Shown here: positions 872-7,469 of the stretch, piece after piece
Layout of the letters: each line of letters begins with the position of its first letter
How positions within the stretch are numbered: the stretch's first letter is position 1
Source: a virus
Taxonomy: Duplodnaviria > Heunggongvirae > Uroviricota > Caudoviricetes
Virus record (IMG/VR): IMGVR_UViG_2690316348_000005
Direction: 5' to 3' (one strand)
DNA: 8,265 nt
Notes under the pieces: model-generated
Told to the model about the DNA's origin: nothing
Database searches by the model: none
The model's input: only the letters and a program-made list of their open reading frames with translations
Position numbers and translations under genes: made by a program

Positions 872-1082
872 AAACGGTTTGCGGGAAAAGGAGAGTTAAG
901 TAGAATTGCAGCGGGTGCTTGAGGCTATCTGTCTCAGGCATGAACACCAAAAGGCAGATAGAGAAAAGCCCCAGTTAACATTACGCGTCCGGCAAGACGC
1001 TTAACATTAATCTGAGGCTCAATCTATGAACGGCAAATCTAGGTTAGCCTCTTACGTGCCGAAAGGCAAGGAGAAGCAGGCT

Positions 1083-1238
1083 ATGAAGCAGCAAAAGGCG
1101 ATGTTAATCGCCCTGATCGTCATCTGTTTAACCGTCATAGTGACGGCACTGGTAACGAGGAAAGACCTCTGCGAGGTACGAATTCGAACCGGCCAGACGG
1201 AGGTCGCTGTCTTCACAGCTTACGAACCTGAGGAGTAA
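1083..1238 (+). CDS. hokD: Hok/Gef-family type I toxin (HokD/RelF-like), 51 aa
   Basis: Translation MKQQKAMLIALIVICLTVIVTALVTRKDLCEVRIRTGQTEVAVFTAYEPEE matches my recollection of E. coli HokD. The ORF-track start at 1026 is an in-frame upstream extension. The gene is followed by a structured 3' region and a strong intrinsic terminator. Confidence 0.85.
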   Translation: MKQQKAMLIALIVICLTVIVTALVTRKDLCEVRIRTGQTEVAVFTAYEPEE

Positions 1239-1815: not shown

Positions 1816-2874
1816 GTGCGGGTATTACTTCGACCTGTTCTGGTACCGGAACTCGGTCTGGTTATCGTTAAGCCAGGCCGTGAATCAATGTCAGCATTCC
1901 ATAACGGCAGAATACTGGTGGAGCCGGAACCAAAAAGCATGCGTAATCTGCCGTCCGGGGTCGTTCCTGCCGCTCGCCAGCCGCTGGTGGAAGACAAAAC
2001 ATTGCTGCCGTTTTTCAGTAACGCACGGGTGATTCGTGCTGCTGGTGGTGCTGGTGCATTGTCTGACTGGCTGTTGCGCCATATTAAATCCTGCCAGTGG
2101 CCACACGGCGATTATCATCACAGCGAAACCGTCATTCACCGTTATGGTACCGGCGCAATGGTGTTGTGCTGGCACTGCGACAACCAGCTGCGTGACCAGA
2201 CATCCGAATCACTCGAGCAACTTGCTCATCAAAACCTGTCAGCATGGATGATTGACGTCATCGGTCACGCAATAAGCGGTACGCAGGAGCGTGAATTATC
2301 TCTGGCTGAATTATCCTGGTGGGCGGTCCGCAATCAGGTGGCGGACGCGCTACCGGAAGCGGTATTACGTCGTTCGCTGGGGTTGCGTGCGGAAAAAATT
2401 CGCTCTGTGTACAGTGAAAGCGACATCATACCGGGAGAGCAGACAGCCACCAGCATACTGAAGCAGCGCACAAAAAATATTGCGTTACTGCCTCACGTCC
2501 ACCAGCAACAGAACCCACCACAGGAAAAGACGGTGGTCAGCATTGCCGTTGATCCGGAGTCACCGGCTCAGTATCTCCAGCGCCAGAAATCACAACGGGA
2601 AGAGATGCCTGTATACACGCGCTGGGTAAAAACGCAGAAATGCATGACGTGTGGCAATCAGGCAGATGATCCGCATCACATCATTGGTCATGGACTGGGA
2701 GGGATGGGAACAAAGGCTGATGATTTGTTTGTTATTCCGTTATGCCGTAAATGCCGTAACGAACTACATGCCGGAGTAAAAGATTTTGAAGAGAAACACG
2801 GCAGTCAGCTGTTGTTGCTGATTCGTTTTTTAATGCACGCGAGAAATTCGGGTGTTCTGAAGTGGAAAGCATAA
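1816..2874 (+). CDS. DUF968/YdfU-like prophage protein with a C-terminal HNH-like Cys/His motif, 352 aa
   Basis: Long ORF with GTG start at 1816 and a GGAGG Shine-Dalgarno 4 nt upstream. C-terminal CMTCGNQADDPHHIIGHG...IPLCRKCRNELH resembles an HNH/zinc-finger motif. The stop is immediately followed by the rusA ATG. Start codon is uncertain; an internal ATG near 1888 is an alternative. Confidence 0.65.
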   Translation: MRVLLRPVLVPELGLVIVKPGRESMSAFHNGRILVEPEPKSMRNLPSGVVPAARQPLVEDKTLLPFFSNARVIRAAGGAGALSDWLLRHIKSCQWPHGDYHHSETVIHRYGTGAMVLCWHCDNQLRDQTSESLEQLAHQNLSAWMIDVIGHAISGTQERELSLAELSWWAVRNQVADALPEAVLRRSLGLRAEKIRSVYSESDIIPGEQTATSILKQRTKNIALLPHVHQQQNPPQEKTVVSIAVDPESPAQYLQRQKSQREEMPVYTRWVKTQKCMTCGNQADDPHHIIGHGLGGMGTKADDLFVIPLCRKCRNELHAGVKDFEEKHGSQLLLLIRFLMHARNSGVLKWKA

Positions 2875-3255
2875 ATGACCGAGCGCATAGAATTTGTTTT
2901 ACCTTACCCGCCGACGGTGAACACTTACTGGCGTCGTCGTGGCAGCACATATTTTGTATCAAAAGCCGGGGAGCGTTATCGCCGGGCAGTGGCGCTTATT
3001 GTTCGCCAGCAGCGGCTGAAATTAAGCCTGTCCGGAAGGTTGGCAATAAAAATTATTGCAGAACCACCGGATAAGCGCCGCCGTGACCTGGACAATATTC
3101 TGAAAGCGCCGCTGGATGCGCTGACGCATGCGGGGTTGCTAATGGACGATGAGCAGTTTGATGAAATCAATATCGTTCGTGCTCAGCCAGTATCTGGTGG
3201 ACGTCTGGGGGTGAAGATTTATCCCATAATGCTTGAAGGGCAGGTCAAAAAATGA
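2875..3255 (+). CDS. rusA: RusA-family Holliday junction resolvase, 126 aa
   Basis: Translation carries the RusA-like core ...PPDKRRRDLDNILKAPLDALTHAGLLMDDEQ... with conserved acidic residues, and the size matches RusA. Sits directly upstream of the Q-like gene, as in lambdoid nin regions. Confidence 0.88.
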   Translation: MTERIEFVLPYPPTVNTYWRRRGSTYFVSKAGERYRRAVALIVRQQRLKLSLSGRLAIKIIAEPPDKRRRDLDNILKAPLDALTHAGLLMDDEQFDEINIVRAQPVSGGRLGVKIYPIMLEGQVKK

Positions 3256-4073
3256 AACTGGAAGATTTACCGAAATACTACTCCCCAAAATCCCCCGGCC
3301 TGACTGATGCATCGGCCTCAACGTCGAAAGATGCGCTGAGTATCACTGATGTGATGGCCGCGCAGGGCATGACACAGAATCGGGCTGAGATGGGGGTTTC
3401 TGCGTTCCTTGGGAAAATGGGCATTAGTATGAATGACAGAGAGCGGGCAACAGAATTGCTGACAGAATATGCACTCAGTCGGTGTGATCGCGTGGCGGCG
3501 TTAAGAAAACTCCCGGCAGAAATAAAACCGGCAGTGATGCGTATTATGGCTTCGTATGCGTTTGAAGATTATGCCCGTAGCGCGGCGAGCAAAAAACAGT
3601 GCCCCTGCTGTCACGGAAAAAAATTTATTGAAAGCGAGGTTTTTACAAACAAGATCCAGTATCCGGATGGTAAGCCGCCGGTATGGGCAAAGTGTACGAA
3701 AGGTGTGTATCCGTCTTACTGGGAAGAATGGAAAAAAGTCAGGGAGGTGGTAAAAGTTGCCTGTCCGGAGTGTGGCGGAAAGGGTGAGGTTTCCACCGCC
3801 TGTAAGGATTGCCGTGGGCGTGGTGTCGCCATTCATCGTGAAGAGTCGGTAAAACGTGGTATGCCTGTTATCAGAGACTGCCAGCGTTGTGGTGGTCGTG
3901 GCTATGAAAGACTACCATCAACGGAGGCATTTAATGCTATATGCGAGGTGACAAACCAGATAACACGCGCGTCATGGGAAAAAACAGTTAAGAAATTTTA
4001 TGATGCGCTGGTGACCCGGTTTGATATTGAAGAAGCATGGGCTGAGCGGCAGTTAAAAAAGGTAACTAGGTAA
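3252..4073 (+). CDS. Putative late-gene antiterminator Q-like protein with four CxxCxGxG zinc-finger repeats, 273 aa
   Basis: ATG overlaps the rusA stop (ATGA). Contains CPCCHGKK, CPECGGKG, CKDCRGRG and CQRCGGRG repeats. Lies immediately upstream of a pR'-like promoter whose initial transcribed sequence is ACGATGGG. The Q assignment is by position and zinc motifs, not by a confirmed homology match. Confidence 0.6.
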   Translation: MKLEDLPKYYSPKSPGLTDASASTSKDALSITDVMAAQGMTQNRAEMGVSAFLGKMGISMNDRERATELLTEYALSRCDRVAALRKLPAEIKPAVMRIMASYAFEDYARSAASKKQCPCCHGKKFIESEVFTNKIQYPDGKPPVWAKCTKGVYPSYWEEWKKVREVVKVACPECGGKGEVSTACKDCRGRGVAIHREESVKRGMPVIRDCQRCGGRGYERLPSTEAFNAICEVTNQITRASWEKTVKKFYDALVTRFDIEEAWAERQLKKVTR

Positions 4074-4078
4074 CAAGG

Positions 4079-4114
4079 TTGATTTTTCCGGAATCTGTGG
4101 TAAATTCGTTATAA
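4079..4114 (+). promoter_or_regulatory. pR'-like late promoter with a likely qut region
   Basis: -35 TTGATT (4079..4084), 16-bp spacer, -10 TAAATT (4101..4106), then ACGATGGG. This closely resembles the lambda pR' -10 and initial transcribed sequence as I recall it. Confidence 0.6.
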
Positions 4115-4154
4115 CGATGGGCGTTTTATGCCTGACGTTAGAAGAGTTTCTACA

Positions 4155-4178
4155 ACCCGCCGCCGAGCGGGTTTTTTA
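4155..4178 (+). terminator. tR'-like intrinsic terminator, about 65 nt downstream of the putative late transcription start
   Basis: Stem CCCGC (4156..4160), loop CGCCGA, stem GCGGG (4167..4171), then TTTTTT (4172..4177). Confidence 0.65.
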
Positions 4179-4297
4179 TGACTGAAATCGCGTCAGTACA
4201 GTAAACGCGCTGGTGGCGGTGAATACCTGTCTTTCAGCTTGCTGGCTTTTTCGACAAGAGTTATTGGTGTGTCACGTTAACCGGAAAAGGAAAAGAC

Positions 4298-4495
4298 ATG
4301 CTAAAACAGCAGGATATGACAGAAACCGCCAGAGTGGTGTTTAATGAATTAAGCGTTACCGAACCGGCGACAGTCGGGGAGATAGCGCAGAATACTTACC
4401 TTTCACGCGAACGCTGCCAGTTAATACTGACCCAGCTGGTTATGGCGGGTCTGGCAGACTATCAGTTCGGTTGTTACAGACGCCTTCCGCAGTGA
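4298..4495 (+). CDS. Small putative winged-helix DNA-binding protein, 65 aa
   Basis: ATG at 4298 with an AAGGAAAAG ribosome-binding site upstream. The segment TVGEIAQNTYLSRERCQLILTQLVMAGL has a helix-turn-helix-like pattern. No specific family recognised. Confidence 0.45.
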   Translation: MLKQQDMTETARVVFNELSVTEPATVGEIAQNTYLSRERCQLILTQLVMAGLADYQFGCYRRLPQ

Positions 4496-4524
4496 AGGCT
4501 TTTTTATTTGTGGTAAATGGGCGG

Positions 4525-4551
4525 CTGGTGGGTGTTAGGGGCACCCACCAG
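4525..4551 (+). other. Perfect 10-bp stem hairpin (CTGGTGGGTG / CACCCACCAG, 7-nt loop) between the small wHTH gene and the methyltransferase
   Basis: Exact inverted repeat read from the sequence. Not followed by a T-run, so it is unlikely to be an intrinsic terminator. Confidence 0.4.
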
Positions 4552-4645
4552 CCATCTGCTCATGCGTTGGGTTCACAAGCAAACCTCAGGCCCACTGCTT
4601 TGCGCAAAAGCAGAATGAGCCTATCAGAGACAGGCTTAATGATCC

Positions 4646-5704
4646 ATGCTTAATACTGTAAAAATATCCAGTTGTGAGTTAATCAACGCCGACTGCCTGG
4701 AATTTATCCGGTCGTTACCCGAAAATTCTGTTGACCTGATAGTCACGGACCCGCCGTACTTTAAAGTGAAGCCTGAGGGCTGGGATAACCAGTGGAAGGG
4801 CGACGATGATTACCTGAAGTGGCTGGACCAGTGTCTGGCGCAGTTCTGGCGGGTGCTGAAACCTGCCGGAAGTCTTTACCTGTTCTGTGGTCATCGCCTG
4901 GCATCTGATATCGAAATCATGATGCGTGAACGCTTCAGTGTGCTGAACCATATTATCTGGGCGAAGCCGTCCGGACGCTGGAACGGATGCAACAAGGAAA
5001 GCCTGCGGGCGTATTTCCCCGCCACAGAGCGCATTCTGTTCGCGGAACATTATCAGGGGCCGTATCGTCCGAAAGATGCCGGGTATGCGGCGAAGGGCAG
5101 TGCACTGAAACAGCATGTGATGGCCCCGCTGATTTCTTACTTTCGTGATGCGCGAGCTGCCCTGGGGATAACGGCAAAACAGATTGCAGATGCCACAGGA
5201 AAGAAAAACATGGTGTCGCACTGGTTCAGTGCCGGTCAGTGGCAGTTGCCGAATGAAAGCGATTATCTGAAATTACAGGCGCTGTTTGCCCGGGTGGCAG
5301 AAGAGAAGCATCGGCGTGGTGAACTGGAAAAGCTCCACCACCAGCTGGTGGATACGTATACCTCACTGAACCGGCAGTATGCGGAGCTGCTGAGTGAATA
5401 TAAACATCTGCGGCGGTATTTTGGCGTGACGGTGCAGGTGCCGTATACCGATGTGTGGACGCATAAACCGGTGCAGTTCTATCCCGGGAAACATCCGTGC
5501 GAAAAACCGGCAGAAATGCTGCAGCAGATAATCAGCGCTAGCAGTCGTCCGGGTGACCTGATTGCAGATTTTTTCATGGGGTTGGGTTCGACAGTGAAAG
5601 CGGCACTGGCGCTCGGGCGTCGTGCAATTGGCGTTGAGCTGGAGACTGAACGTTTTGAGCAGACGGTTCGGGAAGTACAGGATTTAGTCAGCCAGAACGG
5701 ATGA
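4646..5704 (+). CDS. Orphan beta-class DNA methyltransferase (N6-adenine/N4-cytosine family, probably N6-adenine), 352 aa
   Basis: Catalytic motif IV DPPY (LIVTDPPYF) lies N-terminal to the SAM-binding motif I FxGxG (DLIADFFMGLGST), which is the beta-class order. No adjacent restriction endonuclease candidate is visible. Confidence 0.88.
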   Translation: MLNTVKISSCELINADCLEFIRSLPENSVDLIVTDPPYFKVKPEGWDNQWKGDDDYLKWLDQCLAQFWRVLKPAGSLYLFCGHRLASDIEIMMRERFSVLNHIIWAKPSGRWNGCNKESLRAYFPATERILFAEHYQGPYRPKDAGYAAKGSALKQHVMAPLISYFRDARAALGITAKQIADATGKKNMVSHWFSAGQWQLPNESDYLKLQALFARVAEEKHRRGELEKLHHQLVDTYTSLNRQYAELLSEYKHLRRYFGVTVQVPYTDVWTHKPVQFYPGKHPCEKPAEMLQQIISASSRPGDLIADFFMGLGSTVKAALALGRRAIGVELETERFEQTVREVQDLVSQNG

Positions 5705-5744
5705 TATTGAAGAATTAATTACGCGTCGTTATTATGCGGCTCCC

Positions 5745-5820
5745 GGCCCTTTAGCTCAGTGGTGAGAGCGAGCGACTCATAATCGCCAGGTCGCTGGTTC
5801 AAATCCAGCAAGGGCCACCA
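5745..5820 (+). tRNA. ileZ: tRNA-Ile2-like, anticodon CAT (presumed lysidine-modified, reads AUA)
   Basis: Manual cloverleaf: 7-bp acceptor GGCCCTT/AAGGGCC, D-arm with GG, anticodon loop CTCATAA, T-loop TTCAAAT, encoded CCA. Overall resemblance to E. coli ileX. The Ile-versus-Met call rests on that resemblance. Confidence 0.8.
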
Positions 5821-5827
5821 TCACATA

Positions 5828-5904
5828 CCGCCATTAGCTCATCAGGAAAGAGCGCCAGCCTTCGAAGCTGGCTGCGCGGGGTTCAAGTCCCCGATGGCGG
5901 TCCA
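5828..5904 (+). tRNA. argN: tRNA-Arg, anticodon TCG
   Basis: Manual cloverleaf: acceptor CCGCCAT/ATGGCGG (C1-G72), anticodon stem CCAGC/GCTGG, loop CTTCGAA, T-loop TTCAAGT, encoded CCA. The gene symbol is by position in a 933W-like ileZ-argN-argO cluster and is tentative. Confidence 0.75.
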
Positions 5905-5917
5905 TTATCTGCATCAT

Positions 5918-5994
5918 GCGTTGTTAGCTCAGCCGGACAGAGCAATTGCCTTCTAAGCAATCGGTCACTGGTTCGAATCCAGTACAGCGCGCCA
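5918..5994 (+). tRNA. argO: tRNA-Arg, anticodon TCT (reads AGA)
   Basis: Manual cloverleaf: acceptor GCGTTGT/ACAGCGC with a U4-G69 wobble, anticodon stem ATTGC/GCAAT, loop CTTCTAA, T-loop TTCGAAT, encoded CCA. The gene symbol is by position and is tentative. Confidence 0.8.
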
Positions 5995-6458: not shown

Positions 6459-6650
6459 ATACATATCTGGATTATCACCTGTTACGGTAAAAAGTGATTG
6501 CTTACTGTTTTTGTGAATGGCATTGCAGCAGCCGGATAATGTCAGTGCTGGCTGACGGTGTGCTGGTGGCGGGTGTGGTGGTTGTTGCTTTCCCGTTGCT
6601 GAAAAAGAAAACGCCAGACTGTTAGCCGGGTATCAGTTAGCGGGAGAAAT

Positions 6651-6855
6651 TTTTAAATACTTCACAATTCAGGCGGTTGACTGTTGTCTGGTTTGCGGGG
6701 AGTTTGTTAAAAGAAACTGGCATGGTGAATCCCCCTGTGCGGAGGGGCAATCAGCGAGTAGGTATATGGGATAATCGCGGATTCAGGTGCTGGTACTGAA
6801 TTCACCGGGAGGCACCCGGCACCATGCAATGGCACATAGCGCCACTCTCCAGCCC
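6651..6855 (+). repeat. Direct repeat B, copy 1 (about 205 bp), GC-rich and structured; truncated just before the terminator that ends copy 2
   Basis: Matches 7215..7419, identical over the last ~165 bp with about 6 mismatches in the first ~40 bp. Contains hairpins such as CCCCCTGTGCGGAGGGG. Confidence 0.85.
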
Positions 6856-6928
6856 AAAGTACAGGATTTAGTCAGCCAGAACGGATGATATTGAAGAATT
6901 AATTACGCGTCGTTATTATGCGGCTCCC

Positions 6929-7004
6929 GGCCCTTTAGCTCAGTGGTGAGAGCGAGCGACTCATAATCGCCAGGTCGCTGGTTCAAATCCAGCAAGGGCC
7001 ACCA
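6929..7004 (+). tRNA. ileZ: tRNA-Ile2-like, anticodon CAT, second copy
   Basis: Identical to 5745..5820. Confidence 0.8.
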
Positions 7005-7011
7005 TCACATA

Positions 7012-7088
7012 CCGCCATTAGCTCATCAGGAAAGAGCGCCAGCCTTCGAAGCTGGCTGCGCGGGGTTCAAGTCCCCGATGGCGGTCCA
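7012..7088 (+). tRNA. argN: tRNA-Arg, anticodon TCG, second copy
   Basis: Identical to 5828..5904. Confidence 0.75.
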
Positions 7089-7101
7089 TTATCTGCATCA
7101 T

Positions 7102-7178
7102 GCGTTGTTAGCTCAGCCGGACAGAGCAATTGCCTTCTAAGCAATCGGTCACTGGTTCGAATCCAGTACAACGCGCCA
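7102..7178 (+). tRNA. argO: tRNA-Arg, anticodon TCT, second copy with a Watson-Crick U4-A69 pair
   Basis: Identical to 5918..5994 except G69 to A (position 7171), which converts the U4-G69 wobble into U-A. Confidence 0.8.
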
Positions 7179-7192
7179 CACTTATTTTCCCT

Positions 7193-7218
7193 GGCTCGCT
7201 TTTGCGGGCCTTTTTTTT
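7193..7218 (+). terminator. Intrinsic terminator immediately after the second tRNA cluster
   Basis: Stem GGCTCGC / GCGGGCC (one G-U pair), loop TTTT, followed by TTTTTTTT (7211..7218). There is no equivalent after the first tRNA cluster. Confidence 0.7.
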
Positions 7219-7419
7219 AAATGTCTCACAATTCAGACGGTTGACAGTTGTCTGTTTTGCGGGGAGTTTGTTAAAAGAAACTGGCATGGTGAATCCCCCT
7301 GTGCGGAGGGGCAATCAGCGAGTAGGTATATGGGATAATCGCGGATTCAGGTGCTGGTACTGAATTCACCGGGAGGCACCCGGCACCATGCAATGGCACA
7401 TAGCGCCACTCTCCAGCCC
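7215..7419 (+). repeat. Direct repeat B, copy 2 (about 205 bp)
   Basis: See copy 1. This copy begins with a perfect TTGACA (7242..7247) and is followed by a terminator. Confidence 0.85.
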
Positions 7420-7440
7420 CTCTCCGGAGGGGCTGTTTAT
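7415..7440 (+). terminator. Intrinsic terminator at the boundary between repeat B copy 2 and the AT-rich island
   Basis: Stem AGCCCCTC (7415..7422), loop TCCG, stem GAGGGGCT (7427..7434), followed by GTTTATATTGATTTT. Confidence 0.65.
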
Positions 7441-7469
7441 ATTGATTTTGTCAGATGTGAGTAAACTCC

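Follow-up and report, generated by a model that had tools for sequence, protein, structure and literature searches.

The window analysed here, a stretch of 8,265 nt from a Caudoviricetes virus (IMG/VR record IMGVR_UViG_2690316348_000005), contains an open reading frame at the place where the late antiterminator Q is expected, and its 273-aa product carries four cysteine motifs resembling those of the DnaJ cysteine-rich domain. A sequence-only reading of this DNA suggested that the product may be a fusion or a Q protein of unusual type. We asked whether the protein is a Q antiterminator, to which family of Q proteins it belongs, and how its four motifs relate to those of lambda Q and of DnaJ.

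The gene and its four cysteine motifs

The ATG start of the Q gene overlaps the rusA stop codon as ATGA (3252-3255), and the predicted N-terminus, MKLEDLPKYYSPKSP, agrees with the N-termini of all homologues and of lambda Q, indicating that the start of the gene is correct. The DUF968 and RusA genes lie upstream, as does a hok/sok module, and a lambda-pR'-like promoter, a pause element and a terminator follow directly downstream (Table 1). These neighbors confirm the Q position that the sequence-only reading had given the product. The four tandem CxxCxG(x)G/K motifs that it had described are also present, at residues 117, 171, 184 and 210. Motif 1 ends in K where CxxCxGxG has its last G. When 200,000 shuffles of the protein were searched with the pattern C..C.G.[GK], 199,031 contained no motif, 968 contained one, a single shuffle contained two, and none contained three or more. 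The four motifs of the Q protein far exceed chance expectation.

Table 1. Features of the Q locus, in coordinates of the window
Feature	Position	Strand	Basis or remark
DUF968/HNH gene, YdfU-like	1816-2874		upstream of rusA
rusA	2875..3255	+	stop overlaps Q start
Q antiterminator gene, lambda-Q family, long (phi80/QuuQ-like) form	3252..4073	+	273 aa plus stop; ORF list
Residues 1-60, counterpart of the lambda torus-forming N-terminal segment	3252..3431	+	lambda Q alignment; role from PMC9388147
Residues 61-113, first half of helical body	3432..3590	+	alignment to lambda 61-113; AF2 helices 60-80, 92-108
Residues 114-181, 68-aa insertion, motifs 1 and 2 flanking a predicted beta-hairpin	3591..3794	+	unmatched in lambda Q
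Motif 1, CPCCHGKK (C117, C120)	3600..3623	+	sequence read and motif search
Motif 2, CPECGGKG (C171, C174)	3762..3785	+	sequence read and motif search
Residues 182-220, lambda-type zinc-ribbon arm with motifs 3 and 4	3795..3911	+	aligned to lambda Q 116-154
Motif 3, CKDCRGRG (C184, C187), equivalent to lambda C118/C121	3801..3824	+	alignment
Motif 4, CQRCGGRG (C210, C213), equivalent to lambda C144/C147	3879..3902	+	alignment
Residues 221-273, second half of body with helix-turn-helix	3912..4070	+	alignment to lambda Q 155-207; AF2 helices 223-233, 239-272
pR'-like late promoter	4079..4106	+	sequence read and alignment to lambda, phi80 and relatives
AACGAT, -10-like sigma-dependent pause element	4113..4118	+	inferred +1 to +6
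Intrinsic terminator, tR'-like	4154..4180	+	terminator scan; about 60 nt after inferred start
Second intrinsic terminator	4482..4505	+	terminator scan; after a 65-aa ORF, before the methylase gene

Assignment to the lambda-Q family

A Pfam scan of the protein matched PF03589 (Antitermination protein Q) with 179.2 bits against a cut-off of 26.7 (E 1.6e-53); lambda Q reaches 193.4 bits with this profile. Profile searches with the lambda, 82 and 21 types of Q and with DnaJ had been proposed in the sequence-only reading. The lambda-Q family was recovered, the Q21-type and Q82-type profiles were unmatched, and the DnaJ cut-off was not reached. At E <= 1, PF03589 was the sole antitermination family in the Pfam scan, and a search of PDB sequences returned lambda Q entries only and no Q21 entries. 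Membership in the Q21 or Q82 family, having neither a profile match nor a PDB match, was rejected. In PHROGs the protein was matched over its full length by phrog_127, "anti-termination protein Q-like". The best PDB sequence match (phmmer) was lambda Q (7UBM/7UBN, E 3.5e-41), and the alignment fell into two collinear blocks, in which residues 1-113 of the query correspond to lambda residues 1-113 and residues 182-273 to lambda residues 116-207. The assignment of the product as a Q antiterminator is borne out by these matches. The exact 273-aa protein is also catalogued publicly, as "MULTISPECIES: antitermination protein [Shigella]", and occurs on at least 1000 contigs.

We conclude that the protein is, very probably, a late-gene antiterminator of the lambda-Q family, of a long type shared with phi80 Q and QuuQ, which combines the lambda parts with an insertion at the junction of body and arm, following body helix 2, and would act by a lambda-like mechanism. 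The analysis directly supports its membership in the antiterminator family, the conservation of its motifs, the fold predicted for it, and the conservation of the promoter, pause element and terminator downstream.

Architecture and predicted fold compared with lambda Q

The first crystal structure of lambda Q is reportedly that of Vorobiev, from 2014. The N-terminal 60-residue segment of lambda Q refolds into a torus, or nozzle, in the RNA exit channel; the body consists of four helices with a helix-turn-helix (residues 61-113 and 153-207), and the arm (residues 114-152) is a zinc ribbon (PMC9388147). The two cysteine pairs of this ribbon, CRDCHGTG and CGRCKGVG (C118/C121/C144/C147), are already CxxCxGxG motifs.

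The protein in the window shares with lambda Q (207 aa; PDB 4MO1, 7UBJ-7UBN) the PF03589 family, the predicted fold and the spacing of the arm cysteines, and the N-terminal 113 and C-terminal 92 residues of lambda Q are collinear with it, at an identity of only about 40%. Lambda Q has a single zinc ribbon with two motifs, whereas the 273-aa protein has 68 additional residues (114-181) with two more motifs. In a four-way alignment, 17 columns within residues 1-55, G39 among them, are invariant across lambda Q, QuuQ and the long forms. In the arm, the 23-residue spacing from C187 to C210 equals that of lambda C121 to C144, a strand-helix-strand unit predicted at residues 192-209 corresponds to lambda B1-H3-B2, and the cysteines C184, C187, C210 and C213 are invariant in the family alignment, with zinc ligation assigned by homology. 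The helix-turn-helix is likewise placed in the C-terminal body after lambda Q (PMC9388147).

An AF2 model of the protein built from 108 homologues reached a mean pLDDT of 83.9, and the top eight PDB matches in a Foldseek search with this model were all lambda Q chains. The best of them, 7ubn_Q (probability 1.00, E 1e-13, TMt 0.76, target-normalised), is the full-length lambda Q chain of the NusA-containing engaged loading complex. Structure prediction, which the sequence-only reading had also proposed, therefore points to the lambda Q fold. Motifs 3 and 4 therefore have their counterpart in the normal zinc ribbon of lambda Q, and for this pair the view of the protein as an unusual variant fails.

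The insertion and the pairing of its motifs

The segment between motifs 1 and 2 is predicted to form a self-contained hairpin of two 12-residue strands (residues 125-136 and 159-170). Its length among homologues ranges from a few to about 50 residues with both motifs kept, and motifs 1 and 2 are jointly present or jointly absent across diverse homologues. The hairpin has a conserved base and a variable tip. With a cysteine knuckle on either side of its base, the hairpin is laid out like a zinc ribbon, and most likely motifs 1 and 2 close it around a second zinc ion to form a second ribbon. For a direct comparison of the two units we defined module A as motif 1, hairpin and motif 2, and module B as motif 3, arm and motif 4. 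The profiles of the two modules aligned in hhalign with a probability of 93.9% (E 1.5e-7), motif 1 falling on motif 3 and motif 2 on motif 4, a similarity that owes much to the Cys/Gly motifs themselves. From these observations together we interpret the protein as having two zinc ribbons in tandem, which plausibly derive from an internal duplication. Judging from secondary structure and spacing, the motifs are probably paired in tandem (1 with 2, 3 with 4) instead of nested, and we infer from the sequence that all four motifs bind zinc. A natural loss of a single motif pair was sought among 149 aligned sequences, and no informative case was found. Motif 3 is often CxC among homologues, including phi80 Q.

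In the DnaJ cysteine-rich domain the motifs are wired in a nested manner, 1 with 4 and 2 with 3, in a V-shaped hairpin within a hairpin. This domain (DnaJ/Hsp40, PF00684) has four CxxCxGxG-type repeats, as does the Q protein, and presumably binds two zinc ions; the Q protein differs in its predicted tandem arrangement, with a 50-residue hairpin between motifs 1 and 2. We considered whether the same Q protein could be wired in the DnaJ manner, with an outer zinc site made by motifs 1 and 4, an inner site made by motifs 2 and 3, and the insertion nested inside the lambda ribbon. The first lambda motif would then correspond to motif 1 of the 273-aa protein. The lambda motif CRDCHGTG (118-125) and CPCCHGKK (117-124) are almost equidistant from the conserved RSAA(T/S) and both read C..CHG, so this alternative register is possible; the match of Pfam DnaJ_CXXCXGXG over motifs 2-4, which in K-12 QuuQ passes the cut-off with 35.4 bits, and a weak Foldseek match of the model to DnaJA2 (E 0.8), the lone DnaJ match in that search, point the same way. 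However, motifs 3 and 4 agree exactly with the lambda arm in spacing and sequence, with a predicted strand-helix-strand between them, the segment between motifs 1 and 2 is predicted as a hairpin of its own, and module A aligns on module B in tandem order. Furthermore, the length of the 1-2 segment varies about tenfold among homologues while that of the 3-4 segment is fixed, and antiparallel pairing of the two segments would not tolerate such variation. We therefore regard the nested wiring as unlikely and retain the two tandem ribbons as the preferred reading.

Distribution of the long form and closest relatives

Four motifs were found in 28 of the 46 full-length family representatives at 50% identity (full length being 195-300 aa), three in six of them and two in another six. 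Homologues were present in 249 phage records, and in 131 of these a single place in the record covered at least 80% of the query, which we take as the mark of the long form. Examples assigned by this coverage are ES18, ST104, SfV, phiEt88 and Stx2c-converting phages; among the matches listed, lambda, P22, HK97 and HK620 match in two pieces, with 78% coverage. In an alignment of the query with 148 full-length homologues, 143 of the 149 sequences retain all eight cysteines. Of the other six, three seem to be frameshifted or truncated, two fall outside the aligned region, and one is a lambda-like protein of the short type, in which the insertion is absent. Of 5426 complete E. coli genomes, 2495 (46%) contain a DNA homologue of at least 80% identity. 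Homologues with 88-95% DNA identity are present in the sequenced phages mEp460_ev081, Evi and vB_EcoS-640R1 and in a Stx2a-converting phage; the mEp460_ev081 and Evi proteins are 92-96% identical to the query. In Stx2_EH1910, a 94%-identical gene lies upstream of a methylase gene, tRNAs and stx2A.

Two relatives in well-known genomes carry the full set of motifs. The Q protein of phi80 (gene 17, 269 aa; JX871397 41137-41946), annotated as a late (transcription) antitermination protein similar to lambda Q, is 41% identical over its full length, the insertion and the four motifs included. Its hairpin sequence is very similar to that of the 273-aa protein (FT.A.VFTNK..YP.GKPP.W.K), and its motif 3 is CxC, not CxxC. 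Downstream of the phi80 gene lie pR', whose spacer contains a Q site, then the pause-like sequence AACGCT and a terminator; the rusA/DUF968 context upstream is missing. The body and helix-turn-helix sequences of phi80 Q and its promoter spacer differ from those of the protein in the window, and its DNA specificity is therefore probably different. In E. coli K-12, QuuQ/YdfT (250 aa) of the Qin prophage is 44-45% identical and has the four motifs in the same order, with a hairpin between motifs 1 and 2 that is about 23 residues shorter. A DUF968 gene (ydfU) lies upstream of it, with no rusA between ydfU and ydfT, and the prophage is cryptic.

The suggestion of an unusual variant or a fusion does not hold, since phi80 Q, K-12 QuuQ/YdfT and the majority of family representatives also have four motifs. 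The two repeats additional to lambda Q are part of an insertion typical of the long branch, the larger one in the lambda-Q family. The outcome that the sequence-only reading had named as its refutation, repeats that make up the normal zinc-binding region of a known Q family, is thus essentially what was seen. The gene is appropriately named a Q antiterminator of the lambda family (phi80/QuuQ type). The literature on QuuQ/ydfT and on Q, zinc and DnaJ yielded no explicit account of a Q with four motifs, in a search that did not extend to the phi80 Q paper, and the papers on q genes of Stx phages contained no description of the protein architecture. A 2004 study by Guo and Roberts is said to concern phi80 Q and may address the second zinc module. 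Searches of PDB sequences and with Foldseek found no solved structure of any long-form Q; the known structures are of the short lambda form.

Late promoter, pause element and terminators

The pR'-like promoter downstream of the Q gene has a -35 hexamer TTGATT (4079-4084) and a -10 hexamer TAAATT (4101-4106), separated by a 16-nt spacer (4085-4100), TTTCCGGAATCTGTGG. A generic sigma70 promoter scan reported no site in 3900-4700; the pR'-like promoter matches the consensus at 8 of 12 positions. It can be aligned to the pR' promoters of lambda and phi80, and in mEp460_ev081, Evi and Stx2_EH1910 its sequence is almost unchanged. A candidate Q-binding element, TTCCGGAAT (4086-4094), lies inside the spacer, whose sequence differs from that of lambda. 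The phi80 record annotates a Q site, TCGCGGA, just after the -35 hexamer, and the spacer in the window resembles that placement. The sequence AACGATGGG (4113-4121) recurs unchanged in lambda pR' as its sigma70-dependent pause element, and in both cases six nucleotides separate it from the -10 hexamer. The hairpin of the first terminator was also seen in an RNA fold (-21.4 kcal/mol). Those three phages also share the whole unit of promoter, pause element and terminator almost without change. Its terminator and the transcribed part can be recognised after K-12 ydfT as well, where the homologous unit reads AACGATGGGC...GACGTTA...terminator. Beyond the second terminator follow a DNA methylase gene, a tRNA triplet and further genes; Stx2_EH1910 has the same downstream gene order, ending in stx2A.

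The condition of this locus bears on another reading, in which a defective prophage retains the gene as a relic that looks intact but has lost its antiterminator function in the host. The catalogued protein of identical sequence is from Shigella, the prophages of Shigella and K-12 are often degraded, the K-12 homologue belongs to the cryptic Qin prophage, and the tRNA/STnc100 block downstream of the Q gene is duplicated and rearranged. Nevertheless, the open reading frame is full length with every family-invariant residue present, its conserved promoter, pause element and terminator show no damage, and the homologues of 88-95% DNA identity named above reside in sequenced phages and in a Stx2a-converting phage. 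The prophage may be defective; a relic gene without antiterminator function is improbable in our judgment.

Relation to DnaJ

The likeness to DnaJ noted in the sequence-only reading stands at the level of the motif and does not extend to a domain: the Pfam DnaJ_CXXCXGXG profile (PF00684) scored 30.1 bits against a cut-off of 32.7. On the same profile lambda Q, with two motifs only, already scores 23.1 bits, and the insertion scanned alone scores 13.3 bits. TIGR02349 gave 27.9 bits against a cut-off of 377.2, and the DnaJ and anti-TRAP matches in NCBIfam were all far below threshold and confined to residues 163-218. No J domain, G/F region or C-terminal DnaJ substrate-binding domain was found in the protein by the Pfam and NCBIfam scans, and its context is that of a DNA- and RNA polymerase-binding antiterminator, unlike that of DnaJ/Hsp40. 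One Serratia homologue (P0029) carries the mistaken database label "chaperone protein DnaJ". These comparisons suggest that the likeness is confined to the zinc-knuckle motif.

A Q protein fused to a captured DnaJ cysteine-rich domain, with chaperone-like or holdase activity besides or instead of antitermination, would account for the four CxxCxGxG-like motifs, the sub-threshold DnaJ scores and the Serratia label, but it is hardly credible given the scores below cut-off, the missing DnaJ domains, the score reached by lambda Q alone, the low score of an insertion that resembles the protein's own arm, and an architecture common to the annotated antiterminator of phi80. A DnaJ fusion was rejected, every DnaJ profile match to the protein being sub-threshold and further DnaJ domains being absent. 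Since four cysteine motifs are normal in the lambda-Q family, they are no sign of such a fusion.

Proposed mechanism and role of the second ribbon

By analogy with lambda Q, from which each of the following steps is inferred, the Q protein would use its helix-turn-helix and arm to bind the candidate Q-binding element between the two hexamers of the pR'-like promoter, and would engage RNA polymerase paused by sigma70 at AACGAT. With NusA, the N-terminus of the protein would then form the nozzle of the RNA exit channel, and polymerase would be carried through both terminators into the methylase gene, the tRNAs and the late genes.

In lambda Q, residues 110-112, 117 and 122-126 contact the beta' zinc-binding domain, and Zn-proximal residues read positions 11-13 of the Q-binding element (PMC9388147). 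The insertion adjoins both sets of residues, and the second ribbon would consequently be well placed for added contact with DNA or polymerase, or for bracing of the arm. We speculate that it braces the base of the arm, or that it touches DNA or the beta' zinc-binding domain at additional points. A stronger proposal is that the second ribbon works as a "second arm", whose extra contact with DNA or RNA polymerase would give a loading pathway or promoter specificity unlike that of lambda Q; we put this forward tentatively and consider it doubtful.

The consequences for annotation are slight. This type of Q is very widespread, and DnaJ-like motif matches in Q proteins should not be taken for chaperone domains. 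A strictly conserved extra zinc module in the loading complex poses a modest structural question. If the second-arm reading is true, it would cover the long-form Q proteins in general, including that of Stx2_EH1910, which is encoded upstream of stx2A and presumably controls the late transcript that includes this gene.

Features flanking the Q gene

Features annotated in the window around the Q gene
Feature	Window position	Strand	Remarks
sok antitoxin RNA	913-1088		RF01794
hok/gef-type toxin	1026-1238		Complete; PF01848
DUF968/HNH protein	1816-2874		YdfU-like, 352 aa; upstream of rusA
ORF, 65 aa	4298-4495		Between terminators 4154-4180 and 4482-4505
N6/N4 DNA methylase	4646-5704		Next after 65-aa ORF
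tRNA triplet Met(cat)/Arg(tcg)/Arg(tct), copy 1	5745-5994
ORF, 117 aa	6105-6458	+	AT-rich stretch, GC 0.39
STnc100 (Rfam sRNA), copy 1	6691-6842
tRNA triplet Met(cat)/Arg(tcg)/Arg(tct), copy 2	6929-7178
STnc100 (Rfam sRNA), copy 2	7255-7444
ORF, 111 aa	7470-7805	-	AT-rich stretch, GC 0.33

The toxin and its sok antitoxin form a pair (window 913-1238) located in the nin-like region. By alignment, the -10-like pause element AACGAT (4113-4118) is AATGAT in phage mEp460_ev081, which is the sole difference inside the element and retains its -10-like character; the rest of the mEp460_ev081 promoter is nearly identical to that of the window. The 65-aa ORF between the two terminators, for which Pfam gives no match, is conserved at the same position in the Stx2a-converting phage Stx2_EH1910, where it is annotated as a hypothetical protein.

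Both tRNA triplets are located in the region of a 300-nt exact direct repeat (window 5673-5972 and 6857-7156), and a second repeat pair (6637-6855 and 7201-7419; 95% identical) matches the two copies of STnc100. Judged from these repeats, the tRNA and STnc100 block appears to have been duplicated in tandem, with the low-GC segment (0.39) that lies within its first copy apparently inserted there. Neither of the AT-rich ORFs of 117 and 111 aa has a Pfam match; they may represent cargo (moron) genes that occupy the site at which phage Stx2_EH1910 carries stx2A.

Misnamed homologues in databases

The homologues of the DUF968/HNH protein in phages mEp460_ev081 and Evi (positions 1568-2617 of both loci, L003 and L005) are labelled "Phage antitermination protein Q", and the records of both phages therefore contain two "Q" genes; this label looks like a propagated annotation error. 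The Q protein itself has a 258-aa homologue in Serratia quinivorans (P0029; 58% identical) that is named "chaperone protein DnaJ" at NCBI, presumably after its Cys motifs. That name is a misannotation, and it is the kind of error to which the sequence-only reading, which had likened the motifs to DnaJ and suggested an unusual Q or a fusion, would lead.
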